Shown piece after piece: positions 10,224 through 61,620 of a DNA stretch of 64,000 nucleotides. Origin of the DNA: Eledone cirrhosa (taxonomy: Eukaryota). Under the pieces are notes generated by a model. It was not told the DNA's origin and ran no database searches. It saw nothing but the letters and a program-made list of their open reading frames with translations. Made by a program: the position numbers and the translations under genes. Positions within the stretch are counted from its first letter, which is position 1, and the number at the start of each line of letters is the position of its first letter. The stretch covers positions 7,440,001 to 7,504,000 of the forward strand of contig OZ024762.1 of assembly GCA_964016885.1 (NCBI GenBank). Direction: 5' to 3'.

Positions 10224-13200
10224 CTACTGTTGTGTATCTTGTATATTATACATTGGAATCTGTTTCGAAACCTCCATATCCGATATGGTAAAGTCTGTCT
10301 CACTGGGAACTTTCAGTTCCTCTGCCAGTGAATCCGTCTCACTCGACACCAAACTAAGATCTGGTTCTTCAAATATACCAACTGAAGATTGTTGCATCTA
10401 AACGTAAATAAAACATAGAAAACATTTTTTTAATTCTAAAATTAGAAATTTAAAATCAAAAACAAAGGAACAGTGATAGTGACCAGAAAAAAATAATTGG
10501 CCTAGTGGATAGGAGTTTGATTAAAGCTGATTTATTCTACAGAAGGGGAGAGAGAGGTGACAATAATTTACTGAACTAGTAATTTTTTCTTTATGAACCT
10601 TGAAATGATCAAAGGCAAAAGTTAACCTCATGATGCCGAAAAGAAGTTATATTTCACTTTTTATCACTGATAAATTTTAATTACGTATTTAAGCATATAT
10701 ATAGAGTAATGTAAATGTTATGTGAGACAAAACCTTTACCAAGAAAATACAATAGTAAATATAGAGTAATGTAAATGTTATGTGAGGTAAAGCCTTTACT
10801 GTGAAAATACAATAGTAAATATAGAGTAATGTAAATGCTATGTGAGGTAAAGCCTTTACTGTGAAAATACAATAGTATATATAGAGTAATGTAAATGCTA
10901 AAGGTTTAAAACAAACATGTTTTAGATTTGTGGGAAAGAAAACTCAGTTAAAAATATTTACCTGCTCAAATATTGAATCAAATCGTTTAAGTGACTCTTC
11001 ATTCATCGAAATAGTTTCTGTTGAGTTGTCAACCACCTGCAGTTGAATACCTGATGGTGCAGCACTGATACCATGCAGTCCACTAGCTGATGTTGGTGCA
11101 GCACTGATACCATGCAGTCCACTAGCTGATGTTGGTGCAGCACTGACACCATGCAGTCCACTAGCTGATGTTGGTGCAGCACTGACACCATGCAGTCCAC
11201 TAGCTGATGTTGGTGCAGCACTGACACCATGCAGTCCACTAGCTGATGTTGGTGCAGCACTGATACCATGCAGTCCACTAGCTGATGTTGGTGCAGCACT
11301 GATACCATGCAGTCCACTAGCTGATGTTGGTGCAGCACTGATCCTCTGCAGTTCTATAGCTGATGTTGGTGCAGATCTGATCCTCTGCAGTTCTATAGCT
11401 GATGTTGGTGCACCGACCTTCTGAAGGTCAACAGCTTGTGTGTGTGCACTGACTTGTTGCAGTTCAACAGCTGCTGTTGGTGCACTGCATTGCTGCAGCC
11501 AATTGCTACCCTGTTGTGGAGACCTTTCATTACGATTGGCCACAAAGTTTGCTGTGTTTTGCTTCTTCTCGTTTTCTTTAAAACGTTTGATGAATGTCCT
11601 CGCCTGGTCTAAGAGGACTCGATAGTCTTGCTTAATGTTGCTAGGGAGAGACAGCTCACTGAGACCACTTAAACTACTGGAACTCACTGAACTGTTGGTG
11701 TTGGTGCTGCTGGTACTGTTGTTGGTGATGGTGTTGTTGGTGATGGTGTTGTTGGTGTTGGTGTTGTTGTTGGTATTGGTGTTGGTGGTGGTGTTGCTGG
11801 GATTGGTGTTGTTGCTGGTGCTGGTGTTGGTGTAGGGGTTGTTGGTGCTGGTATTGGTGTTGGTGGTGTTGTTGCTGGTATTGGTGTTGGTGTTGTTGCT
11901 GGTGCTGGTGTAGGGGTTGTTGGTGCTGGTATTGGTGTTGGTGTTGTTGCTGGTGTTGGTGTTGTTGGTGCTGGTATTGGTGGTGTTGTTGCTGGTATTG
12001 GTGTTGGTGTTGTTGCTGGTGTTGGTGTAGGGGTTGTTTGTGTTGTTGTTGCTAGCTTTTCTTGATACTGAACTGGTTTCACCTGACAGGGAGGACAAGT
12101 TAGTCCCGTTCGATATTTGTGTTATTCTTGCTGTAGTTGTCATTGTTGATGTTGTTGTCACTGCCATCATTGATGTTGACATTGACTGCAGGGGAGAAGA
12201 GGAGAAAGAAAGGCAGGCAGTATTGGAGAAAGCTACAAAGTTAGGCAAGGAGATGGTCATGGGCGGACGGTCAGAGTTGTTATCATCATCATTATTCTCC
12301 TCTTTTTTACACGTGGAATGCATCATTATCTGATGGTGCTGTGAAGGTAGTGGAGGAGAATACCAATCTGGTGACGAGTCAATAGCCCCTCCACCCCCTT
12401 CTCTGTGGACAGAACCAAGAATTGGAGAGATGTCGAAGGGCAAATGTTCGTGGCTGACTGGTGAATTATTCATTGAGGGTTCTGTATAAATCGTCTCCTG
12501 TAGCAGAGAGACCCAGGTTTGACCCTCAACATCAACCGACTCCTGTCCAGTTTTCCCCCACATCCCTGGGGGTCTTTTCTCCCTCGGAAAATTTACGTCC
12601 GAGCCTTTTGATAAAGGGTTGACATAGACTTTAGCTTTACGCACGGCCGAAGGTTTCGGTTGAGTGGAATTAGAATTATTAGCAGAAAGATCTTCCTGAG
12701 AAGACGAGGTAGAAGAAGAAGCTGAAGAAGAAGATGTAGAAGAAGCAGAAGAGGAGGACAAAGAAGAATAAGAATACTGAGTGAGAGACGACGATGATGA
12801 TGATAATGAAAGACAGTTTTTAGGCTCAGATGGAAGCCTAGCATCAGGCATTGTTTTAGATTGGCAAATCTCCGACCAGGCACCGGCTGCTAACTTTTCT
12901 AAAGAAGCAGGTTTGAACACAACAGGTTTGTCTGTTTGCTGCAATGTCGCCGCTGCTGCTGCTGCTGCTGTTATTGTTGACAATGATGGTGATGGTGGTG
13001 ATGGAGATGGGGACGAAGGCGATGAAATGGCACAGCCTCGTGACACCTGAGACGGCAGATAATTGCACATCACTACAGTTGATTTACTGGTAGAGTCGGA
13101 GACACTCGACTCCTCCAAGACTTGGTCTTTAGCGACGATACCACCAACACCACCACCACCACCGCCGCCATTCAACAATGGTGGCACATCTGGTGATGTC

Positions 13201-16200
13201 TGGAAGAGGACAACTTGAGTGGAGGTTGGTGGCACATCTGATGACATCTGGGAGAAGATATCTTGAGTGGAAGTTGGTAGCACATGTGGTGACAGTGGGC
13301 GTGGTGGTGGTCGCTGTTGTGGTTTATTTGATTTAAAGACAGAACCATCAGAACTGGAACCAGTTATTGGCAGATGCTGCTTTGGTTCTTGTTGTCGTTG
13401 TCCATTTTGGACATTTTGCTGGTTGACTCTTTGGATCGCTTTAAAAGTATCAGGAATTGCTTTGTCGGAAACACCGAAAGCCTGGTCCACTGATGGTTGT
13501 TCATGGCTAACCTCGTCTACTTCATCAGAGTTTGAAGTCGAAAATGAGCCGTAGGAGTGCTGCGAAATATTGGGAGACAATACCCTGGAGGCTTCTGGGA
13601 GATATATTTGATTGGTTCCAGTTGTGTTGTCTTGATTACTGCTGTGGCTGTGAAACGAGGTTTGAAGGACGGGAGGAAAAGACAGAGAAGAAGAAGACGA
13701 CATGTTTGACTGAGGTCGACTGTATTTAGTAGTGAGAGACGGTCGGTAGGTTGGTGCTTGAGAAGATTCAGTTTGGTCAGCTCTGATCTTCTCGAAAGAA
13801 GACAGTTGGTTATTGAGTGATAAATCATTACAAAGAGCCGCCATTTCTGAAGGTTTATGGTCAGTGCCAAGAGAAGGGGACTCTGATAGTTTAGTCAAAG
13901 GGGTCAGACTAGAGGCGGAGAAAGAACCACGGACAGGGTGACTGGTTAGCAAACGGCTTTTGAATTTAGAAAGCATGGGAGCAATAAACTCTGTGAGATT
14001 GAAAGAACTTTCTGGAATTGAAACACTCGGAATGGAATCAATGTTTGATATTGAGACAGAATTTTGTGTGGTTTTATCAAGAGTGGAATTGGTTCCATTT
14101 GTGGCGGCAGCGCTGACATTTTTTTCAGAGCAGTGAAATAAATCAAACTTGGATATTTCAGACTGGTTACAAATACTTTTATCAGCTTCAAAAGTTGTTG
14201 TGTTTTGTGTTATAGAACCAGTAGCACCTGTAGTAGAATTCACAGAGTTGTACAGTGGCTTATTACTGAAAGAAGTTGCACCATCTTCTGCAATATTCTC
14301 CAAGTGATTACATCTGGTGCTCTGTATGTCATCAGATCTGGTGCTCTGTATGTCATCAGATCTGGTGCTCTGTATGTCATCAGATCTGGCGTTCTGTATG
14401 TCATCACAATAGGTGTTTGGCACGACATTTAACGAATTGAATGCCAAATCTTGGTGTTTCTGCCCCAAAAGGTGTAACTGGGTCAGAAATGCTGACAGCT
14501 CCTTGTGATTGTCCATAATTTCTCTAGATAATGAACTGACCGATAGAATTTCAGATGAAGGAGTTTCAGAGCCGGATATCAACTGTTTTGAGGGTAAAAC
14601 TGATGTCAATTTTAATTCATCTGAACTGGTTTCTGAAAATTTCGGGTCACACTGCAGAGGACCAAAATTAATTTCATTGTTTTGAGATTTTATTGATTCC
14701 GAATCGGAACCAGCGCTGTTTCGGTCATTTAAGTCTTGGACATCATCAGAACTTTGATCACAAGATGATTTGGATTGTTCGAGAAGAATCTCTTTCCAGG
14801 TTTTATGTCTGTTATGTTTCCCATCTAAAGCAGCAGTTTCTTCATCTTCTGCTTGTTCCGATATTGAAATATCGGTATTTTGCCATAAAGGGACAGATTT
14901 AGGACTGTAAGGGTCAGTTCTCAGAGAACTGTTGGCACCTAGAATAAGTAGACAAGAAATCATTCAATATTTTCAATAGACAGTGTTTATATTTATTTCC
15001 AGTTACATTATTACATAACAACAACAATAACAACAGCAATGATTTCTACTATAGGCACAAAGCCAGCAATTTGAGGGAGGGAGGAAAATTGATTAAATCA
15101 ACCCCAGTGTATTACTGGTACTTTATTTTATCGACCATGTGAAGATGAAAGGCAAAGCTAAGCTCAGCGGGATTTGAACTCAGAACCTAAAGGGCTGTAA
15201 CTCTATGCTGCAAAGTATGGTGTCTGACGCTCTACCGATTCTGCCAATCCACCAAAATAATAATAATAAATGATAATAGCTCACCTGAAAAGCCAATTAA
15301 TGAGTGGTGACGTGTTGATACTTCATCTGTGACATCAGACGGTTGACAGAGATCAAAAGACTAGAAGAAAACAACAAAGAAATAAAAATAAAAAATAACA
15401 AACCTATTTTTGGTAGCAAGACATGGTCACCTGACCCAACTTGCTTCTAATGGGACAACACGTCTAACCCATGCTAGCGTGGAAAATGGACATTAAACAA
15501 TGATGATTATGATGATGATGATTGTTTATACAGAAGTCAGATGTCACAACAGATTTGAACTGTTGGAACTGAAGAGGTTAGCCTAGTGAAGTGTGTGGAA
15601 GGGTTCACTTTGAAGACCTCTATGTTGAGATGGGCCCCTCCCGCTGATAAATCTCAGAATAACCTGTAATATCTGTGTGGAAGGGTTCACTATGAAGACC
15701 TCTATGTTGAGATGGGCCCCTCCCGCTGATAAATCTCAGAATAACCTGTAATATCTGTGTGGAAGGGTTCACTATGAAGACCTCAATGTTGAGATGGGCC
15801 CCTCCCTCTGATAAATCTCAGAATAACCTGTAATATCTGTGTGGAAGGGTTCACTTTGAAGACCTCTATGTTGAGATGGGTCCCTCCCGCTGATAAATCT
15901 CAGAATAACCTGTAATATCTGTGTGGAAGGGTTCACTATGAAGACCTCAATGTTGAGATGGGCCCCTCCCTCTGATAAATCTCAGAATAACCTGTAATAT
16001 CTGTGTGGAAGGGTTCACTATGAAGACCTCAATGTTGAAATGGGCCCCTCCCTCTCAGTCACTATCTACCTATCATCATCATCTTTTAACGCTAGCATGG
16101 GTTAGAAGGGAATTGTCCCACTTCAGACAAAATTGATCGGGTGACCGTGTCTCACTCATATAGGACTGTATCTGGCAGGTTTTCTATGGCTGGATGCCCT

Positions 16201-19200
16201 CCCTAACACCAACCACTTTACAGCGTGGACTGGGTGCTTTTTGTCATGACACCTACATGACCACTTTAGTTTATCTCTTTCTCTGTCTATCTATTTCACT
16301 CTTTCACTTTCTCTCTCTATCTATCTATATTTCTCTCTCTTTCTCTGGAAGAAATCGATTGTGTTCAGACCCAGTGAGAGATGATGGGCTTTGCCACGTT
16401 GAAAAAAAAAATGCCCAAGAAATGCTGTATGTCACTGTGCAGTCCTTACGACCCCAGCAAGAGTCCTGGGGTCATAAATACATACAAGACCATACACGAT
16501 GTGCCACCACAGAGGTCTGTTTGATCATGGTTGACCTAGGGTTAAACAACAACCACAACAACAACAAACTAAATGAACTTACCGATCTGCTGAGCTGAAG
16601 AATGTCTCCAGTGCTGGAATGGTTATAGATTTCACGGAAATCGTCATTGTTGTTATTGAAGTACTCAAGAAGGGTGTCCGACTTCTTTTTCCTGGCAGTG
16701 GCTGGTGAGACAGAGGAGTAACTATGGCGATTGTCCGACAGATACGTGTTCATCAGGATACTCTCTGCCTCTTCGATGGCGCTGAGTTCATGAGGGTAAT
16801 GACCGTTTATGAAGGCTGACCGTTGGATAGGAGGACGCCGTTGATCCAAGACTCCTCCGGGCTTCCTCATCCCTGACCATGAATCTGAGGTAACTTCTTC
16901 TTCGGAAGCAGGAACACTCACAGATACCTCTTTGACTTCTTTGGACTTCACGCGAATATCAACATTTCTGTCAAACACTTCGCTGCCACTAGATAGCACC
17001 TGTTGACTCAACAATTCCGTTCTTTTGTCAATGTTGTCAAATTCTTTCTGTAAAATTTTGCGGTTTCTTTGAATTTCCTGGTTAATAGTGGCAGCATCTT
17101 CAATAAAACCAGGTTCCCGGAGATGTCCAGTGCTGCGTCCAATATCTGTGAGGCCAGAAGTTCTTCCTGTCACTCCAATGTCTGTGAGGTCATAAGTTCT
17201 TGCTGGTAATGCAGGCGCTGTCGAAGATGGTAACCTTTCGCCATTCAATTGTGATGGTCTATAATTGCTTTGGAAGTTCTTCTCACAATGAAGACATTCG
17301 GTATCTTTTGCAGATAACATTGCTAATAAATCAACTTCGTTAGATGGCACACTGTGACTCTTCAGTTTCTCTGGCAGCACTGGGCTCCGTAAACCCGGCT
17401 GCTGGTGGTGTTGTTGCTGGTACTGCCATGGTTTTAGACTTTTAGCGGTGTCCAAGCTGACCAAACTGGATGGCAAAGCAACACCTTTCTGCAAGACATT
17501 CCCAGAAAGAATGTTTTTTAATGAAGCATAAGACGTCGGTAAAGAACCTGGCAGAGAATTCGGCCAACCTAGTTGTTCATCTGCTTGGGATCGTTCTTCA
17601 CCATCTCCAGATAAGACGGTGGAAGGCTGCCTGACTCCTTGCAGGGTTTGCAAAGACCGATAGAGTTGCTGCACCTTCGAAGATGCTGAGATTTGGCTCA
17701 TTGTATCAGAAGACAGAGGAAGGTTTGATAGGACACCATCATCTGAAATAGCATCAGTATCATCAGAGTTCGCGCTGTCATCAAAAGGAGGATAAGGAGG
17801 CGCAGGACGCGGTGGTAGAAACAACTGACTTTCACCAACATCATGCGTCTCCGAGGCAACATTTGCTGCTACTGCATTCTGGGAAGAGACTTCAGTATCA
17901 TCAAGACCAGAAGATGGAGATTTAGTTTCCTCTTCGTGTTTCTGAAGCATTTGTTTTTGGTATTCTCTAACTTTGGAAATATTTTCAGATAACTTATGAA
18001 CTGTGAGGGGGAAATGTTTGCCTAAGTTGGTGGTACTTAGAGACGACAAGAAATTCAGGGGTGGCGAATCATTTCGGTACAGCTCTGCAGATTCTTTGAT
18101 CTGTGTCATGTTTGACTGAATAAGGGCCCTGCCCTGCTCCAATAACTCATTAATGTTAGGTGGTTGATTATTCCGGAAGGTTCCTTTGTCCGGTGAGTCT
18201 GTTTGGTCAACAGAATCTCCAACCGACTGTTTGACTTCATGTGCTGGAGTAGTTTGAGGAGGGTCAAAACTGGAACCACTCACTCGGTCAGGTTTATCTT
18301 TGTCAAAGTTACGGAGTCTTTCTTCCAATTTTCTTTTCTGCTCCCTGGGTAAAAAAAAAAAAAAAAATTAATATAATCGAGAAAGCTACAATAACATTAA
18401 TTTTAAGGCCATTTTCTTCAAACCCTGAGCACCTTTTTGATTTCCATGTGTCTAACACCTGTGGACAAGCTTACAAAATCAGAAAACAGCACAGCTTCCA
18501 TGACCTTTGGAAACATTTTTTCATGCTCAGAGTTGCTGAAGCATGGAACAAACTACCTGCATCAGTTGTTAGCTGTCAAGACACTGCATCCTTTAAAACC
18601 TCCATGGAACAAACTACCTGCATCAGTTGTTAGTTGTCGAGACACTGCATCCTTTAAAACTTCCATGGAACAAACTACCTGCATCAGTTGTTAGCTGTCG
18701 AGACACTGCATCCTTTAAAACTTTCATGGAACAAACTACATGCATCAGTTGTTAACTGATGAGACACTGCATCCTTTAAAACTTCCATGGAACAAACTAC
18801 CTGCATCAGTTGTTAGCTGTCGTGACACTGCATCCTTTAAAACCTCCATGGAACAAACTACCTGCATCAGTTGTTAGCTGTCGAGACACTGCATCCTATC
18901 CTGTAAAACCTCCATGTTTCCTGAAATTCACCAACACTACAACTGATATCCTCGCTCCATACACGCGCACACATGTATATCATGACTCATACACCGTTCA
19001 TTTTCCTGACATTTGTACATTATTCTATGTACTATACATGCACCTTTGATGAGTTGTAGTGCACCTGAGCACTGTACACAATAATTTTCATTATTATTAT
19101 TATTATTATGACAATGACAACAATGATAAATAAAACTGCCAACAAGAGAAACAAAAACTCACACAATTCTCTTCTTTTGTTCCATAACTTGTTTGATTTG

Positions 19201-22200
19201 CTGTTGAAGATTCAACGGCTGGTCTGTTAGTTTTGGAAACCCTGGCTACAATGGAACAGAACAACAATAACAACAACATTTTAACTCCTTTCATACAATA
19301 TAGTTCCAATGAAATATACTGTACAGTGAGTAGCAGGGAAAAACAGATCTTTAGCATTTAAATCGGCCATATTCGACCAGAATTCTGTCACCACTTTCTG
19401 TTCAAACTGGCTGTACCCAGCCACTCATACTGATGTTAAGGTATTGTTCTCAAAATAAATAATATCAAAATCTCGTAGATTCGATATTATGTAAAGTAAA
19501 CCTTTACTGTGAAAATATAATAGTATATATAGAGTAATGTAAATTGTAAAGGATTATCAATGAAGAGTTTTGAAAAATTGACTAAAATAAATTATTTCAT
19601 TAAGATCATATTGGTACCATGAATGATGGTGGCAAGTTATGATTTAAATAGGAACCTTTTAAAATGAGTGGTTTTGTTTTATAGAACCAGAGCTGGTTTG
19701 GTCAGGTTGGTATTAAAAGGTTTAAATAAGAATCCTTTAAAATGAGTGGTTTTATTATCATAGAATCAGAGGTGGTTTTAGTTGTGTTAATATCATAAGG
19801 ATTAAATAGGAACACTTTTAAACCTTTAGCATTTACATTACTCTATATATAGTATTGTATTTTCATGGTAAAGGCTTTATCTCACATAATATCGAATCTA
19901 TGAGATTTTCATATTATTTATTGTGAGAACAATACCTTAACATCAGTATGAGTGGCTAGTTACAGCAGGTTTGAACAGAAAAAAGTGAGAGAATTCTGGC
20001 CATATACGACTGGTTTAAATGAGTGGGTTTGTTTCATAGAACCAGAAGGGGTTTCAGAGTGATTACTGAGGGAAATTGTTTCTGTAAAAAGAATAACAGG
20101 AGATATCTTACCTGTCTAATTTCTGCTCTGTTGCTATCAGCTACACCATCATCATCATCAATGGCAGTATCAACAATTTCATCTTCAAGGGCAGTATCAA
20201 CAGTTTCATCATCACCTTTCATATTTAAGACTTCAGAATCTCTAGTTTCGCTTTCATCTGGTGTCAAAGACACAGCTGACTCTTCAGGGCTCTGAACCAA
20301 GCTGGGCCCAACATCATGGGTCGGTTCAGAAACAGAGACCTCCTCCCTAAACCCTCCTCTCACTTCTGCTCCTCTTCCTTCTTCCCTACTCTGAGGAATC
20401 TGGGATTTTGTAGATTCTGTTGTTAAACGAGAAGATAGAAAGAAATTAAAAAAATTACAACAACACAAAACAGTAACACAACTACAACACAACATGATGT
20501 TGGTGACAATGATTATAGTGATGACAATCTAAACTATTATAAAGTAAGGAGTGCAGGACTGCGTACGGTTTATAATTTTTTTATCCCATTAGTAAAATAA
20601 GTTGGATTACTTTGAATAAATAATGAATGAATATTACATAATTTATCTACTAAATTTTGTAGCTGTTGATTAAATATATTTTATTACTTATTTAAAGATT
20701 CACTTCTTTAAAATTTTCAAATGTCAACACTTCCGGTTAGCGATCGCTTAAATAAACATTCATATATTTCTGCCACTAATTTTCTCCTAATGCAGTTTAT
20801 ATATAATATCGTCTTATTTAATGTACCATGGATTACTTTACCGATTACATAAGACAGTGTAACGCAGTCTTCGTTTAATTTTTGTGTATATTGTCAATTA
20901 CGATTTTATTTGACGTATCATATCTACATGTATATATACTTGCGTATAATATCAATATACACACTACACATGCTAGCAGAAAAAACCACCCGAAGGGTAC
21001 CTTTTCTGCTAGTGGTGATAATGATGATGATTCTATAGTGTATAAAGTATATAGTGTATACATAGTATATACAAAGTACCAGAATTGTTTGTTCTACTTT
21101 GACCAGCGTCGACAAATTGTAGATTGTCTGTTACGTCACTGATCCACTCATCACGTTGGCTTTTAATACGATTGAACAGCGACTGTAAAGTAAATTCTGA
21201 AACGAGAAGGTATAGTGTCAGGTAGATTGTATAATGAGCTGATATAGTGTCAGGTAGATTGTATAATGAGCTGATATAGTGTCAGGTAGATTGTATAATG
21301 AGCTGATATAGTGTCAGGTAGATTGTATAATGAGCTGATATAGTGTCAGGTAGATTGTATAATGAGCTGATATAGTGTCAGGTAGATTGTATAATGAGCT
21401 GATATAGTGTCAGGTAGATTGTATAATGAACTGATATAGTGTCAGGTAGATTGTATAATGAACTGATATAGTGTCAGGTAGATTGTATAATGAGCTGATA
21501 TAGTGTCAGGTAGATTGTATAATGAGCTGATATAGTGTCAGGTAGATTGTATAATGAGCTGATATAGTGTCAGGTAGATTGTATAATGAGCTGATATAGT
21601 GTCAGGTAGATTGTGTAATGAGCTGATATAGTGTCAGGTAGATTGTATAATGAGCTGATATAGTGTCAGGTAGATTGTGTAATGAGCTGATATAGTGTCA
21701 GGTAGATTGTGTAATGAGATGACAGTGTCAGATAGATTGTATAATGAGATGACAGTGTCAGATAGATTGTGTAATGGGATGATAGAGTGTCAGATAGATT
21801 GTGTAATGAGATGATAGAGTGTCAGGTAGATTGTGAAATGAGATGATAGAGTGTCAGGTAGATTGTGAAATGAGATGATACAATGATTATCAGGTACATT
21901 TTGTAACAAGAAGAAATATTTGCTACACCTTGGAATCTCAGGTAATCAGTGATGGTCTGTAGTCCAGGTAAGAGTTTGTAAAAGATTTTCATGAGTTCAA
22001 ATGTCATGAAAAATTAATGTCTCCACTGAACCACAGATTGAGCCATGTCTCAACTGAGCTACTGATTGAGCCACACATTTCAACTGAGCTACTGATTGAG
22101 CCACACGTTTCAACTGAGCTACTGATTGAGCCACACGTTTCAACTGAGCTACTGATTGAGCCACACGTCTCAACTGAGCTACTGATTGAGCCACACGTTT

Positions 22201-25200
22201 CAACTGAGCTACTGATTGAGGATGAAAGACAAAGCTAACCTTGGCGGGATTTGAACTCAGAATGTAAAGGGACGTAACTCTATGCTGCAAGGCATAATGT
22301 TCAACGCTCTACTGATTGACCCACGTTTCAACTGAGCCACTGATTGAGCCACACGTTTCAACAGAGAAAAACAACCCAAACTCCCACTGTCATCACCTCT
22401 GTCTCTCTCGCCCGCCCCGAACTCCCACTGTCGTCACCTCTGTCTCTCTCGCCCTCCCCAAACTCCCACTGTCACTGCCTATATCTCTCTCACCCTCTCC
22501 GAACTCCTACTGTCATCACCTCCATCTCTCTCGCCCTCCCCATCTCTCACATGTACACCAGGTCCGAACACAGAAGAGACAAACTCCCACTGTCATCACC
22601 TCTGTCTCTCTCGCCCTCCTCATCTCTCACTATTGTGAGCAAATGGGGTCCCATGCACTGGTCGCCTCACAGCCCCACCGGACAGAATAGAGAAGGTGTT
22701 TCCTCGGATATCTTGTAGATGACAAAAAAAAACAAACCAAACAATGAAAATATGGAATAAAAGAGATATTTACTGTCTGTGTGTTTCTGTGACGAAGGAA
22801 TATTGGTTATATCTCTCATGGTTGTTGAGCTGGAGATAGATTCCTGGTCAGATGTGAGGGTAAGGTCAAGAGAATCTGTAGCAGCCGGGGTCTCGACTGC
22901 AGGGTGGGGTTCCAGCAGTACATTCAAGTCCCTCTTCAACTCTACAGGGAAGAAGAAGAAGGAGTAAGAAATCAATCAAGGAATCAATCAATAGATCAAT
23001 GTCATTTTGAACAAGGTGGTGGGGACTTGGTTAGTACACCCCTCCCCCACACAGTAAACCACAAGTCCAGGGGACATGATGTTAAATGATGGTAATAGTG
23101 GTAGTGGTGGTGATGATGTTATTGATGGTGATGGTGGTTGCTGTGATGATGGTGAACACTAACAACAACACCAACATCATCACCACCACCACCACCACAA
23201 CCAACATCATCACCACCACCACCACCGACAGCACCGCAACACCACCACAACCAACATCATCACACCAACACCACTACAACCAACACCAACAGCACCGCAA
23301 CATCATCACACCAAGACCACCACAACCAATATCACCACCACCACCACCAATACCAATAACCTCACCACCACCAAGATATTCAAGAAGAAAACTCAAGACC
23401 TGAATCACTACTGATGTAAATCTGTTCAAACTGTTTTTCCAATAGTTTCTGTTTAGCCTGAAGATTCTCCTGACGTTTGTATGGCGGAAGGAACACTTGC
23501 TTCTAGAAATTTCAGCCAAAAATATGGAATAGAAAAAAAAAAAAATGAAGAATTAGATTTTAATCCTTTATCATTTATATTACTCTATATATACTATTGT
23601 ATTTTCATAGTAAAGGCTTTACTGCTCATAATATCTCACATAACATTTACATTACTCTATATATACTATTGTATTTTCATAGTAAAGGCTTTATTGCACA
23701 TAATTTCTCACATAACATTTACATTACTTTATATCTACTATTGTATTTTCATAGTAAAGGCTTTACTGCACATAATATCTCACATAACATTTACATTACT
23801 CTATATCTACTATTGTATTTTCATAGTAAAGGCTTTACTGCACATAATATCTCACATAACATCTACATTACTCTATATATACTATTGTATTTTCACAGTA
23901 AAGGCTTTACTGCACATAATATCTCACATAACATTTACATTACTCTATATCTACTATTGTATTTTCACAGGAAAGGCTTTACCTCACATAATATCTAACA
24001 TAACATTTACATTACTCTATATCTACTATTGTATTTTCACAGGAAAGGCTTTACCTCACATAATATCTCACATAACATTTACATTACTCTATATATACTA
24101 TTGTATTTTCATAGTAAAGGCTTTACCTCACATAATATCTCACATAACATTTACATTACTTTATATATACTATTGTATTTTCACAGGAAAGGCTTTACCT
24201 CACATAATATCTCACATAACATTTACATTACTCTATATATACTATTGTATTTTCACAGGAAAGGCTTTACCTCACATAATATCTAACATAACATTTACAT
24301 TACTTTATATATACTATTGTATTTTCATGGTAAACACTTGATCTCATAACTATCTCACATAATATCGAATCTATGAGGTTTTGGATTTATTTATTTTGCG
24401 TACAATACCTTAACATTAGTATGAGCAGCTATTTATGGCAGGTTTGAGCAAAAAGAGGTGAGGGAATTCTGGCCGGATATAGCTGGTTTAAATGCAGAAT
24501 TTTTTTCAACATGCTGACGCGTGTGTGTATATGTGTATGTATAAGTGTGTATATGTGTGTGTATATGTGTATCTGTGCATATGCATACATTTACATGTAT
24601 CATATCATCATCGTTTAATGTGTATCTTCCACGCTAGCATGGGTTAGACGGGAATTGTCCCACTTGAGGCAAGATTGATCGGGTGACCGTGTCTCGCTCA
24701 TATAGGACTGTATCTGGCAGGAGTGTCTAAATATAAACGTGCAATCACAGACGCACACTTACAGACATACATTCACACAAATGCACATACAATCACGCAG
24801 ACATACTATTTACACAAACACACACATGCACTCACACACAGCGTAGCAAATGGAACGCCAACCGCTGTTTTTGCTACAGTTTGTTCACCATCCTTTTCCT
24901 TGTGTGAGATGGAAGTCGTACAAATTTATATAGAGATTCTAGATATCCCAGCCAAAATTATAGATTAGAAAACAGAAAATGAAGCATTTCTCTTTTTTTT
25001 CTTGGCAAATACAGTCATTTATTTGACATGAAATGTTGTTCAATAAAATGTACAGAAAAGCAAAAAAAAAAGCAACATTGGGAAGGACTATAAATGCCAT
25101 AAATGAAAGGAAAAATAGGAGGAGGGCAATGATTATTAGACAAAGGAAGAAAGAGAGGAAGAAAAAATAGAGGGTGACAGACTCTACACCGAGGTCACAG

Positions 25201-29966: not shown

Positions 29967-30013
<47 letters not shown>

Positions 30014-31469: not shown

Positions 31470-31515
<46 letters not shown>

Positions 31516-31781
31516 TAAGATGCCGTTAAGGTTGGAAGCAGCGATTCTTTGCTTAAACTTTAATCTGTTTTTTTAATAAATATTTGCTCTATGGTTTTAA
31601 TAATTGTTTCTACTTTTGGCACAAGGCCAACAATTATCCCAGTGTATTACAGGTACTTTATTTTATCGACCCCATAAGGATGAAAGGCAAAGTTAACGAC
31701 AATATATATTTATATATTTTTTATATATATATTATTCTTATCGAGCCCTCTTCAGATTTTAGTCTTCACATTTTTTATTAT

Positions 31782-31833
<52 letters not shown>

Positions 31834-32821: not shown

Positions 32822-32854
<33 letters not shown>

Positions 32855-32891
32855 CACACACAAACACAAATATATATATACACACACACAA

Positions 32892-32930
<39 letters not shown>

Positions 32931-33386
32931 AATATATATATCTATATCTATATATATATATTCATTCAAAGTATTAACAAAAATAGAACTTCATTGTGAT
33001 CAAGTATATTTTATTATACATATTTCAGAGGTACTGAGTTAACTTCAACAGTACGTCCTCATCAGATAAAATAAGATGATCCATGACATACCCTGACAAA
33101 GTAGATGGTTAAGATCCTTTGAATGAATATTAATAACTCCGGAAAACCTTTTTTCTGTTGAGTGCTTTCAATCTATTGTAAAACTAATTCTTGATTTATT
33201 CATCGAACCTTGTTTAACCTTTAAATATATATATATATGTATGTATGTATATATATATATGTATGTATATCATCATCATCATTTTACGTCCGCTTTTTCC
33301 TGCTTGCAAGGGTGGGACGGGTCTTATTCAGCAGAGCATCTCTCCACTTGTCACAGTCCTTCAGCAATCTGAGGTCTGTTCTCACC

Positions 33387-33419
<33 letters not shown>

Positions 33420-36737: not shown

Positions 36738-36762
36738 AATTAAATAATTATCAAAGACTGAC

Positions 36763-45300: not shown

Positions 45301-48300
45301 ATCATTCCACTGCAAGGTGGTCGTGGAGGCGCCACCGTAAAAAGCACCCAGCCCTCACTGTAAATGAGGTTGGTGTCAGGAAGGGAATCCAGCTGTAGAA
45401 ATCAAGCCAGAATCAGTTCCCGTATAAGCAAGACAAGGTCAGACGACTGGAAACGGCTCACAACAGGACAACCCGTCTAACGCATGCTAGCGTGGAAGAA
45501 CGGACGTAAAACAGTGATGATGATGATGATGATCTATTCAAACAGAACTTAAAACCATAATTTTTTTTTTTTTGGATATGTCACTATTTATAAAACAACT
45601 TTTGTATTTTATCTGATGAGAGCGTACTAAAAAATTTTGGTACCCTTGAAATATATATATAATAGAATAAATATGGCTTTATAAAGATAGTTTCCATTTA
45701 TTAATATAAATGATATCGCTCTCTCTCTATATATACATATACACACACACACACGGGTAGACTGAAAAGTTCATAGGCTGACTATGAATTCGTTTCCAAC
45801 AGTTCATAACGTCAAAGCTAGATGGGGTTACTAGTTTATTGATGTGACGTTTGTCAATGAAAATAGTCATTTTACTGGGGAAAAAAGCCAGCAAGACAAC
45901 TTTATCTGTGTAAATTATACACGGCAGTCAACAGGTTGATGTGGCCTTCCCCAAGAACCAAGAGTTTTTCTCACCTTTAATACTCTTAACTGTTCTTTCA
46001 GGTTAGTACAGTCATCTTTATGATGTAGCAACTCCTGCTGAAGGTGCTGGTTTTCGAGTCGTAGGGTTTCCATCAATTCATTGTCAACCTGTAAATTAGA
46101 AGTAAAGAACTTTATGAAATCACCTGCTGCACCAATCCAGGAGTTTTGCTTTTTATTGTTTTGCCCAGTCCCACTTTAACCCTTTAGCATTTAAACCAAC
46201 CATATCCGGCCAGAATTCTCTCACCTGTTTCTGTTCAAACTGGCCGTAACTGGTCACTCATACTGATGTTAAGGTATTGTTAACAAACCACACCCCATCT
46301 ACCCACCCCCTACCCAGATATATACCCAGGTATCTACGCCTCTACCCAGGTATTTACCCACCCCTATCCAGGTATATACCCACCCTACCTATATATATAT
46401 ATATATACCTAGGTATCCCATTGTAAAGTGGACGTGGAGGTTGCCATGGAAAAAAGCACCCAGCACTCACTGTAAATAAGGTTAGTGTTAGGAAGGGCAT
46501 CCAGCTGTAGCAATCAAGCCAGAATCAGTTCCCGTATGAGCAAGACAAGGTCAGCCGACCGGACACTGCCCACAACAGGACAACCCATCTAACCCATGCT
46601 AGTGTGGAAGATGTATCTATCCAACACTACCCAGATATCTAGTCACAACTAACCTTCATTCTAGCAGCCTGATCCTCTCTAGATTGTTCCAGCTCCACTT
46701 GCAAGCTTTTGATGGCCGCTATCCTCGTATTGACATCAATCCTCAAAGCTATTACAGCTCTCTTGAGAAGGTCATCAGATTTACCGAAGTCCCTGCAATG
46801 AAAGAGAAACTACAGTTCACAGACAATTATCTCTTTCGATACCATATTTCTAGTTAAAGACACTGCTTAGGAATTCCCAAATATTTCTGAAAATAATCAA
46901 GAATTTAGGGTGATTTAATAACATGATTAATCTTCTCATTAGTAAGAGCGGTGGATTGACAGTATCGGTAGAGGGTCGGACGCCATGCTTTGCAGAAAAG
47001 AGTTATGGCCCTTTATGGTCTGAGTTCAAATCCCGCCGCGGTTAACTGTCTTTCATCCTTATGAGGTCGATAAAATAAAGTACCAGTAATACACTGGGGT
47101 AATTGCTGGCCTTGTGCCAAAAGTAGAAACAATTATTAAGTTGGTGTTTAGAACATAACTTAACAAAGGTTCTTAAATAAAATTATGATGAAAGGTTTTT
47201 AAATAAATATAAACATTTTAAATCTTTCAGTACCATATTTCTAATGAAAGACACTGTTAATTGTTCAAATCCTAGGAGACAAGCGGTAGTCAGTCTCTTA
47301 GCAACAACAGGAGAATATGTAGTTTTGATTGATTGTATGAGAAATCATCACCACCATCACTATCACCATCACCACCACCAATATCACCATCACTATGATC
47401 ATCACCACCATCACCACCACCACCACCATCACCCCCACCATCATCATTATCACCACCACCACCACTACCACCACCATCATTTATCATCCATTTGATGTAA
47501 AGACAGAATTGAGATGTTTAACTAGACACGTCAAATCATGTATAAGAGCTGTCGCACCATCTGTGACACCCTACCATGACCCCCACCACCAACTACAATA
47601 ATGTATATACTTACACCAAAGCGTCACTCTGTTCTTTAATCAAATCATTAAGTTTATAAATCTCCTGTTCTCCGTCTTGTCTCAATCTCTCAGATTCTTC
47701 AATATTGTTGGCTAGTTTCTCATTTACAGCTTCCAAATCCTGAAATATCGTTTTACAACATCAACATTATAATTACCTCACAACACAATATCTCAGCCAC
47801 CTCACAACACTACTTTATTGTTACTTCACAACACATTATAGCTACCACACAACACTACATTACAGTTAATTCACAATAGATTATTGTTACTTCACAACAC
47901 ATTATAACTACCACACAACACTACATTACAGTTAATTCACACTACATTATTGTTACTTCACAACACATTATAGCTACCACACAACCCATTACTGTTACCA
48001 CACAACACTATATTACAGCTACCTCACAACACACTATCGCAGCTACCTCACAAGACTACATTATATTTACATCAAAACACTATATTATATCGCAGCTACC
48101 TCACAAGACTACATTATATTTACATCGTGGATTGGCAGTATCGTTAGAGGGTCTGACGCCATGTTTTGCAGCAAAGAGTTACAACCCTTTATGGCCTGAG
48201 TTCAAATCCCGCCGAGGTTAACTTTGCCTTTCATCCTTACGGGGTCGATAAAATAAATACCAGTAATGCACTGGGATAATTGCTGGCTTTGTGCCAAAAG

Positions 48301-51144
48301 TAGAAACAATTATATTTACATCACAACACAATATTCTATTTAACAAACAAAGCCAAACAAAAGCCCACAGAGAGGTACGAAGTGCGAGTTACTAGGAAGC
48401 AGCTATTTACCGAACATCTGTCTTGAAGAGTCTGGTATTCAGAATTAACGGAATCAAAATCTTCCTCGAGGATGTCCTTCTGTTCTTGAACAACTTTCAA
48501 CTGATTTTCACATTCTGTTAGCTTTTCTGAAAGTTGTTGGACCTCCAGTTTTCTCTCTCCATCTTTGCTGTTGTTAGATTTATGGTATTTCTCCATCTTC
48601 TGCATCTTGCGCAGGAACGATTTGTGAAGTTGCTCGTGTTCAGATCTTAGTTGAGCTGCCTGGAAGGTTTATTTAAAGAGGAAAGAGAGATAGAGATAGG
48701 TCAGATAAATAGAACGACAAAATACAGAACAGAACAAATTTTTTCACCTTTTAAGCACTGAGAATATATGCAGGTGACATGACAAAAAGCTCCCACTGTA
48801 AAGTGGTCGTGTAGGTGACACAACAAAAAAGTCCCCGGCCCAAACTGTAAAATAGTAGTGCTGGTGACATGACAAAAGGCCACCAATACCTGCTGTAAAG
48901 TGGTTGTGTAGGTGACACAACAAAAAGTCTCCAGCCCAAACTGTAAAATAATAGTGCTGGTGACATGACAAAAAGCCACCAATACTCACTGTAAAATGGT
49001 TGTGTAGGTGTCACAACAAAAAGCACACAGTATTCACTATAAAATGGTCGAATAGGTGTCACGACAAAAAGCACCCAGTACTCACTGTAAATGTGGTTGG
49101 TGTTAGGTGCCATAAGAACCCACACTGTAAAATAGTAGTGCTGGTGCCATGACATAATGCACCCAGTACACTCTGTAAACTGGTAGAGGTGTTGCTATGA
49201 CAAAGTGCTCCCAGTCCACTCGATAAGGTGATAGTGATGGTGCCATCATAAAATAAACCAAGTACAATATGTAAGGTGGTAGTGATGGTGCCATAACAAA
49301 ATGTACCCAGTACAAATGGATGGAGTTGGGAAAATGTAGCCATAGTATTCTACATAGAATTGTCCAACCCATGCTAGCATGGAATGCACGTGTGGTCCCA
49401 TAACTCCTGAGAGAGTTGTAGGGGTACTGTATTGACACACAGCGTTTCTAAGGCGTTTTGAAACCTGACGGAGCCAGCATGTAATAACAGGTGTGAAATA
49501 AATGATGATTAAGTATGGTTCTCACCTTTGATTTAAGTTTTGTCATCTCTTTCTCGTGAACTTCCTCTAAGTTTTCTTTCTCTGCAGTGAGTTTAGCAAC
49601 TTGGGTTTCAAGAGTTAGTGTCTGGCGAAAAAAAATATTTTAACCCTTTAGCATTTACCTTACTCTATATATACTATTGTATTTTTGTGGGGTAAAGGCT
49701 TTATCTTACATAATTATCTCACATAATATCGAATCTATGAGATTTCGATGTTATTTATTTTGAGAACAATACCTTAACGTCAGTATGGGTAGCTAGTTAT
49801 GGTCGGTTTGAACAGAAAGAGGTGAGAGAATTCTGGCTGGATATGGCCGGTTTAAATGCTAAAGGGTTAACCCTTTTGTGAAAATATTTCTAATGAAATA
49901 CACTGACTGAATCACAATTAATTAATGAAGAATTTGAGGCCTTCTCCTCTTCGCCAACTTATTCTTAAGAGGATCATGGGGGCCCGAGTCCTCAAACACT
50001 CGTTCCAGCAGGTCCTGTCAGAAGCAACCCTCTCCAACTGATCCGGCTGGATCCCCAAACAATACCAGCCAAGCTCATGGATGTTATCCAACCATCCTGT
50101 TAGGGGTTTACCTCTGGTTCTTCTGTTGGTTGGTTTTTGCCTGTAAAATCTGTCCAGTGATTCTTTCCTGAGACATTCTAACCACATGTCCATAGTATCA
50201 GAGCTGTGATCTCTCAATTCGGAGAAGTAGTGGCTCTACCTGGAGTGACTCTCTGATCTCAGAGCTACATTACTCCAAAGGCCCTTTGGAGGAACCCCAT
50301 TTCAGCCTATGAACTTCAGAAAAGGTTCTTTTGTTGTGAAAAACTTTAATATTTAATGTCATGCAATCACAGCACCTGTCTTCTACTTTCCAAGAATGTC
50401 TTGCTAATGTGGTCTCATGTGGTTCAGGACATTAAGAATGAAGGTCAAACAGAACTGACTGACCTTTTTGGAATTCTCATCAATATTTAATCTCTGTTGT
50501 TGACATTCCTGGTTCTTCTTTTCGAACTGTTTATGGACTTTTCTCATTTGTTGTTTCAGGCCTGTCTCTCTGTTTTTCACTTTTATTTCAATATTTTGCA
50601 CCAAATCTCGTAATTCTTGTTCACACGACCTCATCAAAGTTCCTCCGACAGGAAGCCTGGAAAGAAAGAGGAGTAGAGGAGAGAATATAAGAATTCCACG
50701 TAGCAGATGTGAAAAATTCCATGTGACTTATTTACCATATCTTGCTTTAAGCCTGAAATACTGAGCCCTATGTATATTAGTTTTATAATAGTATATTTTG
50801 GCTCGCGGCTGAGTGGGTAGCGAATAGGATTCACAATCGTGAGGTTGTGAGTTCGATTCCCGGACCGGATAATGCGTTATGTCCTTGAGTAAGACACTTT
50901 ATTTCACGTTGCTCCTTCTACCCGGAGTTGCGAACGATAGATAGTATTAGCAATTGGAAAGACCAGTGGAAACATTGTTTCCTCGGTCTGATTTGACGAA
51001 AGTCAGTCGACTCCTGTCTATATATATACAGTCTTCTATGAATTGATATAGCTAAAACAATAGAAATATCCAGTAAGCAACTTACAGGTTTTCATTTTTT
51101 AAGTCTATCCACAGACCTTGAGAATAAACTTCTTTATCAGCCAT
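42388..51144 (-). CDS. CEP63: CEP63/DEUP1-family centriole duplication coiled-coil protein, ~551 aa. Coding exons 51086-51144, 50464-50656, 49526-49621, 48411-48659, 47615-47739, 46654-46792, 45975-46088, 44835-44980, 43963-44093, 43023-43279, 42388-42534
   Basis: N-terminal GGTLMRSCEQELRDLVQNIEIKVKNR resembles CEP63 [25 protein letters not shown]. C-terminal DFLQKEQIYRRDWEDNFSKELHHIWHNTEVVFERY resembles the CEP63/DEUP1 terminal FLEEEE..HI..L motif. All GT-AG phases are consistent, and there is an in-frame stop upstream of ATG 51144. Confidence 0.85.
43564..43895. repeat. 40-bp tandem repeat with two alternating variants
   Basis: tactaaatac recurs at 43601, 43641, 43681 and onward. Confidence 0.88.
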
Positions 51145-54903: not shown

Positions 54904-57900
54904 ATGTTTAATTTATTAAAAGACGAACACAAGGAGCATCTAAAATTCTTAACTAATGTTGATGCTGAAGGTAATATCTTATTATTATATGTTCACCTAT
55001 TCTCGACAGGGTCGTGGGGGCAGAGTCCTCAAACACTCCTTCCAGTGGGTCCTGTCAAGTAACTGTCTCCAACTGATCCGACTTGATCCCCAAACGAGAC
55101 CAACCAAGCTCATGTATGTTATCCAACCATCTTGCTCGGGATCTACCCCTGAATCTCCTGCCAGTTGGTTTTGCCCGTAAAATCTGTCCAGTGATTCTTT
55201 CCTGAGACATTCTAACCACATGTCCATAGCATCAGAGCTGTGATCTCTCAATTCAGAGAAGTAGCAGCTCTACCTAGAGTGACTCTCTGATCTCAGAGCT
55301 ACAAATCTGTCCAGTGATTCTTTCCTGAGACATTCTAACCACATGTCCATAGCATCAGAGCTGTGATCTCTCAATTCAGAGAAGTAGCAGCTCTACCTAG
55401 AGTGACTCTCTGATCTCAGAGCTACAAATCTGTCCAGTGATTCTTTCTTGAGATATTCTAACCACATGTCCATAGTATCGGAGCTGTGATCTCTCAATTC
55501 AGAGAAGTAGCCGCTCTACCGGGAGTGACTCTCTGATCTCAGAGCTACAAATCTGTCCAGTGATTCTTTCCTGAGATATTCTAACCACATGTCCATAGTA
55601 TCAGAGCTGTGATCTCTCAGTTCAGAGAAGTAGCGGCTCTACCTGCAGTGACTTTCTGAGCTACACACTTCGTATTCTTTTATATATATATATATATATG
55701 TGTGTTATATATGTTCTTGTCTGATGACTGTGGTAAACAGTCGAAACTCCACAGTAATAAGACTCACTATTTAGCCTGAATAAAAATGAATATTTAAAAT
55801 CTACTTCGGTATTGAGTACTCCTTTCTCTCAGCCGCCAACCACATACGTATTTACGGGCCCAGCTCCATGTAACCAGTAGAGCACTCTCGATGCTTGGAG
55901 ATGTGGCTAATACTTCAATCATTAGACTGCGGTCATACAGGAGCACCGTCTTGATTTAGTCGATCATATTAATCCCGGTATTTTGTGAGGGTTTTTTTCA
56001 GATCTGGTATATATAGATATATTATCGATCTTTTTGTTAATCGAACCGCGAAGTTACCTGGACATAACCACAGACCAAACACACACACATTTTTGTGTGT
56101 ATTATATGTATAAGGTTCCTAGCAATAATTAATTGATTATATATATGTATGTATATACACACGCTTATATATATATACATACGTCTATATATATATACAC
56201 ACGTATGTATATACACACATATGTATGTATTTAATAGTTAAAGTTACTAATGTATTAATATTTTCAATTGCAGTTGTTGGGGAGTTCTGTCGTATCTCCT
56301 TACAGTTCATAAAAAATGGTCCCAATACAAAGGTTTACCAAAGTGCAGCACGTAAGTTGAAATTCTTTCTTATTAGCAGAATCGGTAGAGTGTCAGACAA
56401 CATGCTTTGTGGCATAGAGTTACGGCAATTTACGTTCTGAGTTAAAATCTTGCCAACGTTAGCTTTGTCCTTCATCCTTTCCGTAGAATTTAAAGTTGGT
56501 GAACATCATCAAAATATTGACCTTGAATGTAAGCCGGCCACACAATTTTATGTCTAAGAAATGGGCAAAAACCTAAACCTTATTTACATAAAATATGAAG
56601 TTGGTGAAAATCCCCAAAATATTTACCTTGAATATAAGCCAATCCCTCTATTTTATGTCTGAGAAATGGGCATATTTACGTAGAATTTGAAGTTGGTGAA
56701 AATTGTCAAAATACTGACCTCAAATATAAACCTTCACCAGCTTATATTCGAGTAATTGTTATATAAAATAATGGATATATCTACTGAAATATTTTAAGCT
56801 TTTCAAATATCTTTCTTCAGAGAAACTTGATGTGGAAGCCAAAGTTGTCCAGCATGCTGTGGAAGGGTTAATGTACCTCCTCACTGAGACCTCAAGATTT
56901 ATGGTAAGTGCTATTGTTTGGTTCTTTCAAGTTGACCATGTCACAAGAGGTATATTCATGGTGACTTTCCTCACTGAGACCACTCCATTTATGGATTAGA
57001 CAAGATGTCCCGTTCTGAGACAAGTCGGGTCAGGTGACTGTGTCTTCCTCATACAGAACTGTTTCTAGCTTGGTTTCTACAGTTAGATGCACTTACTTAC
57101 ACCAACCACTTTACAGTGTGTACTGAGAGTTTTTTGTTGTGTCACCTACATGACCACATGACAGTGTGGACTGGGTGCTTTTTGTTGTGACACCTACACA
57201 ATCTTTTTACAGTGGACTTTTTGTCATGACACCAAAATAACCACTTTACAGTGTGGACTGGGTTTTTTTTGTCACAACACCAAAACAACCACTTTACAGT
57301 GTAAACTGGTTGCTGTTTGCCATATATATATATTTTATATCATATTCTATTCTTTACAGGTACCTGAAGCTGAATATAAAGAATCCTTAAGTGTTCTTGG
57401 ATTCCAAGATGACAAAATTGAGATTTTACTAAACATGTATCTGGAAAATAGAGGAAATATTCGGAACATTCTCTCGGAAATGTCTATGGATCTTCCTTAT
57501 TATTCCGACCTAGAATGGCGCTTTGATGTTCAGGTGAGGAAATCTTTGACTTTTCTTTTCAATTTTGTGTATGTAGCTAGTAAGTGTGTGTGTGTATGTA
57601 GCTAGGAAGTGTGTGTGTATGTGTGTGTAGTAAAGAAGTTTGTGTATAATTACAGGTAGCTTGTCAATCAACAAAGCACAAGGTGTGACCAAACATTCCA
57701 TTCAAATTTCTATATTTTCCTCCTCCTCCCCCATATCTCGTTACAGGTAGCTAGTCGTTCTCTGAAGGACCAAGTAATGCCAAACATTCTACTGAAACTC
57801 CACATAGAAGAAGACCATGAAATTACTACACACCACCTCCAGACAGACCCTGGGAACCTGGTTCATTTAACGAAGGAACTAGAGCGAGCGTTGGATGAAA

Positions 57901-57944
57901 TGAAATCAAATTATAGTAGACAGATTGTTAGAAATATAGACTAA
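54904..57944 (+). CDS. COMMD2: COMM domain-containing protein 2, complete, 199 aa. Exons 54904-54970, 56274-56351, 56821-56903, 57360-57533, 57747-57944
   Basis: MFNLLKDEHKEHLKFL..VVGEFCRIS..VQHAVEGLMYLLTE..LPYYSDLEWRFDVQVASRSL..LQTDPGNLVHL..LERALDEMKSNYSRQIVRNID*; 600 nt in total with consistent phases. Confidence 0.96.
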
Positions 57945-58499: not shown

Positions 58500-58531
<32 letters not shown>

Positions 58532-61440: not shown

Positions 61441-61620
61441 TCAATTGTGAGAGATAGCCTTCGTCTTGAAAAACACATAGGTGACAATTAGACAGATAAC
61501 AACAACAACAACAGGTAAGACTATTGTGAACACCTTCTGCTTGTTATCCAGGAACTCTTTCTTCCTTTCTCGCTTTTCCTTCTTACTCTCCTTCTTCACC
61601 TGACCTTTCAACTGCCTCAT
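61441..61620 (-). CDS. SMCO4: Single-pass membrane and coiled-coil domain protein 4 (59 aa), single coding exon
   Basis: MRQLKGQVKKESKKEKRERKKEFLDNKQKVFTIVLPVVVVVICLIVTYVFFKTKAISHN*, compared with human MRQLKGKPKKETSKDKKERKQAMQEARQQITTVVLP..TM. Acceptor ctccag| at 61643. It is below the 60-aa ORF cutoff. Confidence 0.93.
   Translation of the reverse strand: MRQLKGQVKKESKKEKRERKKEFLDNKQKVFTIVLPVVVVVICLIVTYVFFKTKAISHN

Follow-up and report, generated by a model that had tools for sequence, protein, structure and literature searches.

Four neighbouring genes at one locus of Eledone cirrhosa

We analysed a 64,000-nucleotide stretch of the genome of the octopod Eledone cirrhosa (3.0-Gb assembly GCA_964016885.1; contig OZ024762.1, labelled C23 here; C23:7,440,001-7,504,000), called the window below, in which two centriole genes, CEP295 and a member of the CEP63/DEUP1 family (CEP63a), lie beside COMMD2 and SMCO4. 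A preliminary description of this DNA had claimed that CEP295, a CEP63/DEUP1-type gene and SMCO4, with COMMD2 named in brackets, form an ancient linkage. Gene models based on splice signals, open frames and homology recover four intact, unrelated neighbours at the places and in the order claimed, reading from left to right CEP295 (-), CEP63a (-), COMMD2 (+) and SMCO4 (-) between the CEP295 stop (10224) and the SMCO4 ATG (61620), and the claimed identities hold gene by gene on domain, structure and homology matches. The block is real, likely ancient and apparently undescribed, ancient microsynteny in cephalopods being well known as a kind; to the linkage we add an inverted duplicate of the CEP63 gene that lies beyond the window end.

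CEP295 (10224..34429, -) was modelled with 18 coding exons encoding 2,539 amino acids (aa) on the basis of an open frame and N-terminal homology, a model that presumes a start codon split by an intron and a few weak donors. Its first ~320 aa form a DDC8-like N-terminal domain that lines up by eye, nearly without gaps, with the human domain shown in supplement 1 of PMC5007451, and that part of the protein is 30% identical over 316 aa (expect value, E, 1e-44) to the CEP295 of an animal metagenome contig, L048, described below, with matching exon sizes and phases. Pfam gave no relevant match in the exons scanned (11/11), and a CEP295 exon of L048 used as query found no match in this genome, which is not evidence of absence. 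The C-terminal ALMS motif (PF15309) was not found in CEP295; because this motif, present in human CEP295, is reported there to be dispensable for centrosome formation (PMC5007451), we do not treat it as defining the gene. The sole ALMS match in the genome, at C15:3,380,064-3,380,803 (+), likely belongs to an ALMS1-type gene. Two very large exons of CEP295 (18344-16583 and 14938-10962) are of low complexity, and the second, 4 kb long, holds tandem peptide repeats with 12-aa units near its end and 8-aa units near its start, as well as an Asn/Thr-rich tract. Upstream, a CpG-rich stretch (36751..37050, -; 18 CpG in 300 bp, observed/expected ratio 1.35) likely contains the CEP295 promoter and first non-coding exon. 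No further gene was seen in the interval between CEP63a and CEP295.

COMMD2 (54904..57944, +) encodes 199 aa in five exons, with an open frame, GT-AG boundaries at all introns and a COMM domain. Its exon 4 matches COMMD2 in the PDB at E 4.8e-13, compared with 0.01 for COMMD3, and COMMD2 is the best match among solved COMMD chains. The gene is head-to-head with CEP63a (3.76 kb from ATG to ATG), and two ETS-type core motifs (54731 and 54753) lie on its upstream side. SMCO4 (61441..61620, -) is a single coding exon of 59 aa that shows the size, the single hydrophobic segment and the DUF4519 match (E 1.8e-22, over the cut-off) of its family; it has one match in the genome, and thus is single-copy, and it is 78% identical to SMCO4 of Octopus bimaculoides. 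It stands tail-to-tail with COMMD2 and head-to-head with the second CEP63 copy (CEP63b), 5.0 kb from ATG to ATG, a spacer whose in-window share is 61621..64000 (no strand assigned), CEP63b itself being beyond the window. A tandem repeat with units of ~120 bp (60370-61045) lies directly 3′ of SMCO4.

Family membership and C-terminal helix of CEP63a

CEP63a (42388..51144, -) comprises 11 exons with an open frame and GT-AG boundaries at all introns, and our model encodes 546 aa, compared with 551 in the preliminary description. Exon 2 matches positions 2-55 of the Pfam CEP63 family (PF17045) at E 1.2e-3, a value from one exon only that falls short of the cut-off, and matches human CEP63 in the PDB (9i7q) at E 0.003. 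Full-length cephalopod relatives (P0001 and P0002) exceed the PF17045 cut-off, one relative is named CEP63-like, and CEP63a is 43% identical to P0002. A search with exon 2 against 1.8 billion representatives returned five matches, four of them CEP63-like, including an Argonauta CEP63-like protein and a 293-aa protein of O. bimaculoides; the fifth is an unrelated repeat protein and was set aside. A profile made from those CEP63-like relatives retrieved hemichordate and vertebrate CEP63-family proteins, and a single CEP63 exon searched against a large protein set gave no matches. Judged by these comparisons, CEP63a carries the N-terminal CEP63 domain.

The C-terminal helix of CEP63a (42519-42388) is conserved in cephalopod CEP63. 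The decapodiform helices match the deuterostome C-terminus, none of 500 shuffles scoring as high (0/500), and the CEP63a helix aligns with the decapodiform ones. Compared directly with the deuterostome helix, CEP63a was equalled or bettered by 165 of 500 shuffles, which speaks against the assignment; because the decapodiform versions match, and the octopod one does so via them only, we consider the helix likely to be the one that binds CEP152. Searches of the genome with PF25771, the model of the C-terminal CEP152-binding helix, and with PF25770 gave no match, and neither result is evidence of absence. An AlphaFold model of relative P0001 shows long helices with a predicted template modelling score (pTM) of 0.23, and was not used as evidence.

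A second, inverted CEP63 copy beyond the window

A Pfam CEP63 search of the genome yielded two matches among seven candidates, namely CEP63a and an opposite-strand exon 4 kb past the window end. The latter falls within CEP63b (C23:7506631-7520234, +), an inverted paralog of CEP63a that starts 2.6 kb past the window end and has 10 exons and 417 open codons, with an uncertain last exon (to about C23:7521400). The two copies are 40% identical, with a synonymous divergence (dS) of about 1.3 and exon phases that match over most of their length; the identity and dS rule out a haplotype artefact. The ratio of non-synonymous to synonymous divergence (dN/dS) is 0.35 overall, falling to 0.19 over the first 135 aa, in one pairwise estimate that is near saturation.

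The likeness of the copies reaches outside their coding sequence. Specifically, a non-coding segment of 241 bp (38570..38810, -), located 3.6 kb past the CEP63a stop, has two matches in the genome, and the second, at 78% identity, lies in the region 3′ of CEP63b, the only other place that it matches. We consider it likely to be the far 3′ untranslated region of CEP63a and to mark where the duplicated unit ends on its outer side; since a non-coding 3′ segment is common to both copies, the whole CEP63 gene was likely duplicated. A 212-bp tract spanning intron and exon (46735..46946, -) is 95% identical to CEP63b, compared with 51% for the rest of the exon, and likely reflects gene conversion between the copies. 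A cephalopod helix profile run over 264 kb found the CEP63a exon only and nothing near CEP63b, which is probably a truncated paralog and not a full member of the CEP63/DEUP1 family.

We built a tree from the N-terminal part of 11 CEP63 sequences (six cephalopod, one hemichordate, three of 12 vertebrate matches, and L048), ten of which entered the clade tests. Both copies fall inside the octopod clade (support 98/94) among CEP63-family proteins, and they group together at 86/90, on branches of 1.02 for CEP63b and 0.33 for CEP63a. Two features of the tree weigh against our account: pairings of CEP63b with O. bimaculoides and of CEP63a with Argonauta are not rejected (approximately unbiased test, p-AU 0.073 and 0.167), which bears on the timing of the duplication, and the tree contains no vertebrate DEUP1. 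With the tree so composed, we infer that CEP63a is a co-ortholog of both CEP63 and DEUP1. The 293-aa O. bimaculoides protein (P0004, XP_014783408.1) is short, divergent and CEP63-like, without the C-terminal helix; it may represent the CEP63b ortholog, a further duplicate or an incomplete gene model. In Sepia, two CEP63 accessions whose numbers differ by three, at first sight two genes, proved to be isoforms of one, so that no decapodiform duplicate is shown.

The block in other animals

An SMCO4 alignment used to scan metagenome contigs retrieved 39 loci, which form 11 groups at 80% identity. One of these contigs, L048, of which 20 kb of 32 kb was examined, carries all four genes within 20 kb in the order CEP295<- SMCO4-> COMMD2<- CEP63-> (CEP295 ATG 8860 (-); SMCO4 10001 (+); COMMD2 ATG 13090 (-); CEP63 from 16644 (+)), such that CEP295 and CEP63 are the outer members, point apart and have three open reading frames (ORFs) between them. 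The contig is compact, of 50% GC and of animal type; its COMMD2 is 51% identical to that of the window, and its CEP63 is nearer to a hemichordate protein (E 2e-36) than to those of cephalopods. In the tree, L048 CEP63 lies outside hemichordate and vertebrates at 84/82, and the test does not reject its placement beside the hemichordate (p-AU 0.18). By its CEP63, L048 is not a cephalopod, and it is probably not a vertebrate. Between COMMD2 and CEP63 it carries an intronless, divergent TALE-type homeobox ORF (L048:13700-14839 (-); Homeobox_KN, E 3e-8), which has no counterpart in the 264 kb around the window.

Parts of the block recur on other contigs. CEP295 is head-to-head with SMCO4, about 2 kb apart, in L044, and COMMD2 is tail-to-tail with SMCO4 in L027. 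In a decapodiform-like assembly, a CEP63 exon and SMCO4 are both listed with a longest contig of 867,865 bp, and probably sit on one contig. Adjacency of accession numbers offered no test of synteny, as no species had comparable accessions for two of the genes. The ancient linkage asserted in the preliminary description is supported by the four genes together in L048 and by three neighbours in human, and COMMD2 belongs to the old block, being present with the other three in L048.

Several results tell against an old block. Beyond the window the full set of four is seen in L048 only, and L044 is probably a close relative of L048. COMMD2 is present at 2/39 SMCO4 loci (2/8 of those with at least 2.5 kb downstream) and CEP295 at 2/39 (2/9 of those with at least 2 kb upstream); CEP63 is present at 1/39, most loci being too short. 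None of the other block genes was found at nine termite-type loci (grouped with termite SMCO4) or in a group of 19 loci, in the latter over upstream stretches of up to 7.7 kb and downstream stretches of up to 8.7 kb, and downstream of SMCO4 L051 has instead two weak Angiomotin_C matches (E 0.004 and 0.07). Larger introns and spacers could hide linkage in short contigs.

Comparison with human

The human order at 11q21, CCDC67 (DEUP1), SMCO4, CEP295 (table in PMC6454239), bears out the claim that these three genes are neighbours. Human COMMD2 is at 3q25.1 (PMC4567323) and CEP63 at 3q22.2, beside AMOTL2 (PMC9803250). The further claim that DEUP1, and not CEP63, kept the ancestral neighbourhood therefore stands for SMCO4 and CEP295 and fails for COMMD2, which is on the chromosome arm of CEP63 (3q). 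Such a distribution fits reciprocal loss after genome duplication, and the vertebrate genome duplication would probably have left DEUP1-SMCO4-CEP295 on 11q21 and CEP63 with COMMD2 on 3q. We take the human strands to be DEUP1 +, SMCO4 - and CEP295 +, with SMCO4 and CEP295 divergent; their starts are presumably about 120 kb apart, which sits poorly with a shared promoter. Supplement rows of PMC8040251 link 3q22-25, Xq and 11q21 in paralogon 16 through AMOTL2/AMOT/AMOTL1 and CP/HEPH/HEPHL1. Pulling the other way, MTNR1B (11q21) belongs to another paralogon and EPHB1 (3q22) to a third, with genes of paralogons 15 and 17 nearby, and CEP63/DEUP1 is absent among the supplement rows covered (PMC8040251).

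Probable ancestral order and a proposed octopod inversion

Written as signed orders (A, CEP295; S, SMCO4; C, COMMD2; D, CEP63), L048 reads -A +S -C +D, the octopod -A -D +C -S +D and human -A +S -D. The adjacency A/S is common to L048, L044 and human, S/C to L048, L027 and the octopod, and C/D to L048 and the octopod, whereas A/D is found in the octopod only. As all three adjacencies of the L048 order are found again in some other lineage, this order is the simplest ancestor. The window order is that of L048 with SMCO4-COMMD2-CEP63 inverted, and CEP63b lies inverted at the other breakpoint; the inverted copies CEP63a and CEP63b thus flank COMMD2-SMCO4 in the pattern of a staggered break, with the distant L048 as the only outgroup. 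The same-strand arrangement of CEP63 and CEP295, which the preliminary description took to be ancestral, is seen only in this genome, and CEP63 directly upstream of CEP295 is likely a derived state. Since CEP63 and CEP295 are outer members pointing apart in L048, the match in orientation between window and human is likely convergent.

Under a published definition of ancient microsynteny (at least three orthologs with at most five intervening genes, in any order; PMC9023564), the window and L048 share four genes and human holds three. Set against a criterion of at least six distant species, the occurrences are one full and two partial contigs, plus human.

Our best explanation as a whole, to which we give a probability of about 0.6, is that the block likely dates from at least the bilaterian ancestor, has likely been maintained by promoters shared within head-to-head pairs and likely underwent one inversion that duplicated CEP63. 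That the linkage is ancestral is very probable, because human keeps three genes together. The old order would probably have been CEP295<- SMCO4-> COMMD2<- CEP63->, and it is likely, if slightly less so, that an octopod inversion of SMCO4-COMMD2-CEP63 with a staggered break across CEP63 would have produced CEP295<- CEP63a<- COMMD2-> SMCO4<- CEP63b->. CEP63a would have retained the promoter region of COMMD2 together with the C-terminal helix, the likely CEP152-binding element, and CEP63b, moved beside the promoter of SMCO4, would have evolved at about three times the rate and likely lost the helix. Inverted duplicates mark 17 of 29 Drosophila inversions (PMC1885836). The same final order could also have arisen in two steps, an inverted CEP63 copy appearing beside CEP295 and recombination between the copies then flipping SMCO4-COMMD2, a route that is improbable yet deserves to be taken seriously: at least one exchange of sequence between the copies is likely (212 bp at 95%), and a duplicated unit of over 12 kb seems long for a staggered break, but two events are needed in place of one and no intermediate was seen. 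Coincidental re-association in octopods is hardly credible. Although coleoid genomes gained 505 new microsyntenies (PMC9023564), the same four genes are together in L048 and three of them in human, and the chance of finding three named genes within five genes of a fourth in a linkage group of 700 genes is, by a rough calculation, at most 3e-7 per focal gene, or 0.004 over 15,000 focal genes.

Why the block may persist

In two of the three conserved adjacencies, a centriole gene stands head-to-head with a housekeeping gene. Because, of all ancient pairs that are conserved, the head-to-head class shows the strongest enrichment (Irimia et al. 2012, PMC3514665), we propose, at even odds, that the centriole genes would each share upstream regulatory DNA with a housekeeping gene, and that co-transcription of the centriole genes is not involved. 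Such promoter sharing is harder to reconcile with the CEP295-SMCO4 pair being broken in the window genome, with the homeobox ORF that splits COMMD2 and CEP63 in L048, and with octopod gaps of 3.8 and 5.0 kb that have repeats inside.

The preliminary description had instead supposed that CEP63 upstream of CEP295 on the same strand was retained through co-regulation of the two centriole genes. The window has this arrangement, as do human DEUP1 and CEP295 (gene order, PMC6454239), the likely 3′ end of CEP63a is about 1.6 kb from the likely CEP295 promoter, CEP63 and CEP295 are described as acting upstream of or with CEP152 (PMC5007451, PMC8470418), and ancient microsyntenies in squid are reported to be co-expressed on average (PMC9023564). 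However, the conserved adjacencies do not appear to point to co-regulation of CEP63 and CEP295: in L048 three ORFs separate the two, which face outwards in opposite directions; it is SMCO4 that lies upstream of CEP295 in L048, L044 and human; and the octopod order bears a sign of rearrangement in the form of the CEP63 duplicate at the far breakpoint. We regard this explanation as quite doubtful. The linkage might also be old and functionless, small gene-dense blocks breaking slowly and local inversions shuffling them freely. The order and orientation of the genes do vary from L048 to the octopod and human, two groups of loci lack the block, and in a survey of 5,821 genomes most stable pairs were without sign of co-regulation (PMC13508932); yet four genes stayed together despite heavy genome reorganisation in the lineage (PMC9023564), and two of three conserved adjacencies are of the head-to-head class enriched among constrained pairs (PMC3514665), which makes this reading rather unlikely. 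Shared upstream regulatory DNA lends itself to a bolder extension that we consider unlikely as well: L048 would be non-bilaterian, the block would be a regulatory unit as old as animals, coupling two genes of centriole maturation to housekeeping promoters, and octopods would have independently repeated the vertebrate CEP63/DEUP1 split. Through the inversion, CEP63b would have acquired a new promoter and, in sperm or multiciliated cells, a role that is inhibitory or does not depend on CEP152.

Neighbouring genes

To the left of the block, BRCC3 (397-7427, +; BRCC36_C, E 1.6e-12 and 4.4e-13) begins before the window and is tail-to-tail with CEP295, the stops being 2.8 kb apart; its membership of the old block is not supported, its expected position in L048 falling past the 20 kb examined, and RAB39B, its human neighbour, belongs to another paralogon. 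About eight single-ORF C2H2 zinc-finger genes follow right after CEP63b, and then a DEAD-box helicase (C23:7,522,000-7,576,000).

The surroundings of SMCO4 vary among the metagenome loci. In L051, angiomotin-like exons (L051:6046-8821 (-)) are tail-to-tail with SMCO4; since human AMOTL1 is near SMCO4 and AMOTL2 beside CEP63, angiomotin may have been part of a wider ancestral neighbourhood. In the window genome angiomotin is on another chromosome, C1. Upstream of SMCO4 lie a single-ORF protein kinase of 502 aa (L013:3497-5002 (-)), SPT5 (L021:3030-5376 (+)), a cytochrome-b5-domain gene that we take to be PGRMC-like (L014:1-726 (-)) and an exon without a Pfam match that is presumably SMUG1-like (L015:1187-1543 (-)). 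At termite-type loci (L024:3265-3597 (-); L028 near 5332 (-)), the head-to-head gene, also without a Pfam match, resembles in our estimation an SLC25A51-like mitochondrial carrier, and in L031 a CCDC174-like ORF (L031:365-1687 (+)) lies 130 bp past SMCO4 on the same strand.

Relation to known systems and significance

The block resembles the conserved microsyntenic pairs described by Irimia et al. 2012 (PMC3514665) and Schmidbaur et al. 2022 (PMC9023564) in that unrelated genes remain neighbours in distantly related animals, head-to-head pairs occur and intergenic distances are short, and differs from them in holding two genes of one organelle pathway and in being rearranged. For Euprymna, 275 retained metazoan microsyntenic blocks have been reported (PMC9023564). 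A search by gene name did not find the block in the supplements of PMC9023564, PMC7269912 or PMC13508932, whose tables may use gene ids, and no paper on the block or on an octopod CEP63 duplicate was found among the top listings of broad literature searches, the PMC3514665 supplement and Zhao et al. 2013 (Deup1) lying outside that scope. Like the MCIDAS-CCNO-CDC20B multiciliation locus of vertebrates (PMC8470418), in which several centriole-amplification genes share a conserved block, the present one contains more than one centriole gene; that locus is limited to vertebrates, whereas the block here is likely older and has each centriole gene paired with a housekeeping gene.

The inverted gene copies flank a segment, as in inversions with inverted duplications at both breakpoints (Ranz et al. 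2007, PMC1885836); unlike those cases, the event here is old (dS about 1.3) and involves a whole gene of over 12 kb, and the outgroup is distant. As in the vertebrate CEP63/DEUP1 pair, a CEP63 duplicate is under purifying selection and evolves asymmetrically, but the octopod duplicate is independent, local and, as far as seen, limited to octopods. DEUP1 still binds CEP152 (PMC8470418), whereas CEP63b appears to be without the helix that likely does so.

The block offers a positional marker, in that fast-evolving CEP63 and CEP295 orthologs missed by sequence searches can be looked for next to SMCO4 and COMMD2. It also suggests that a whole-genome duplication in vertebrates gave rise to CEP63 and DEUP1, their neighbours being lost reciprocally, and it probably exemplifies an inversion in which an entire gene was duplicated. 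With its independent CEP63 duplicate, the octopod further allows one to ask whether copies of CEP63 are repeatedly recruited to centriole amplification.

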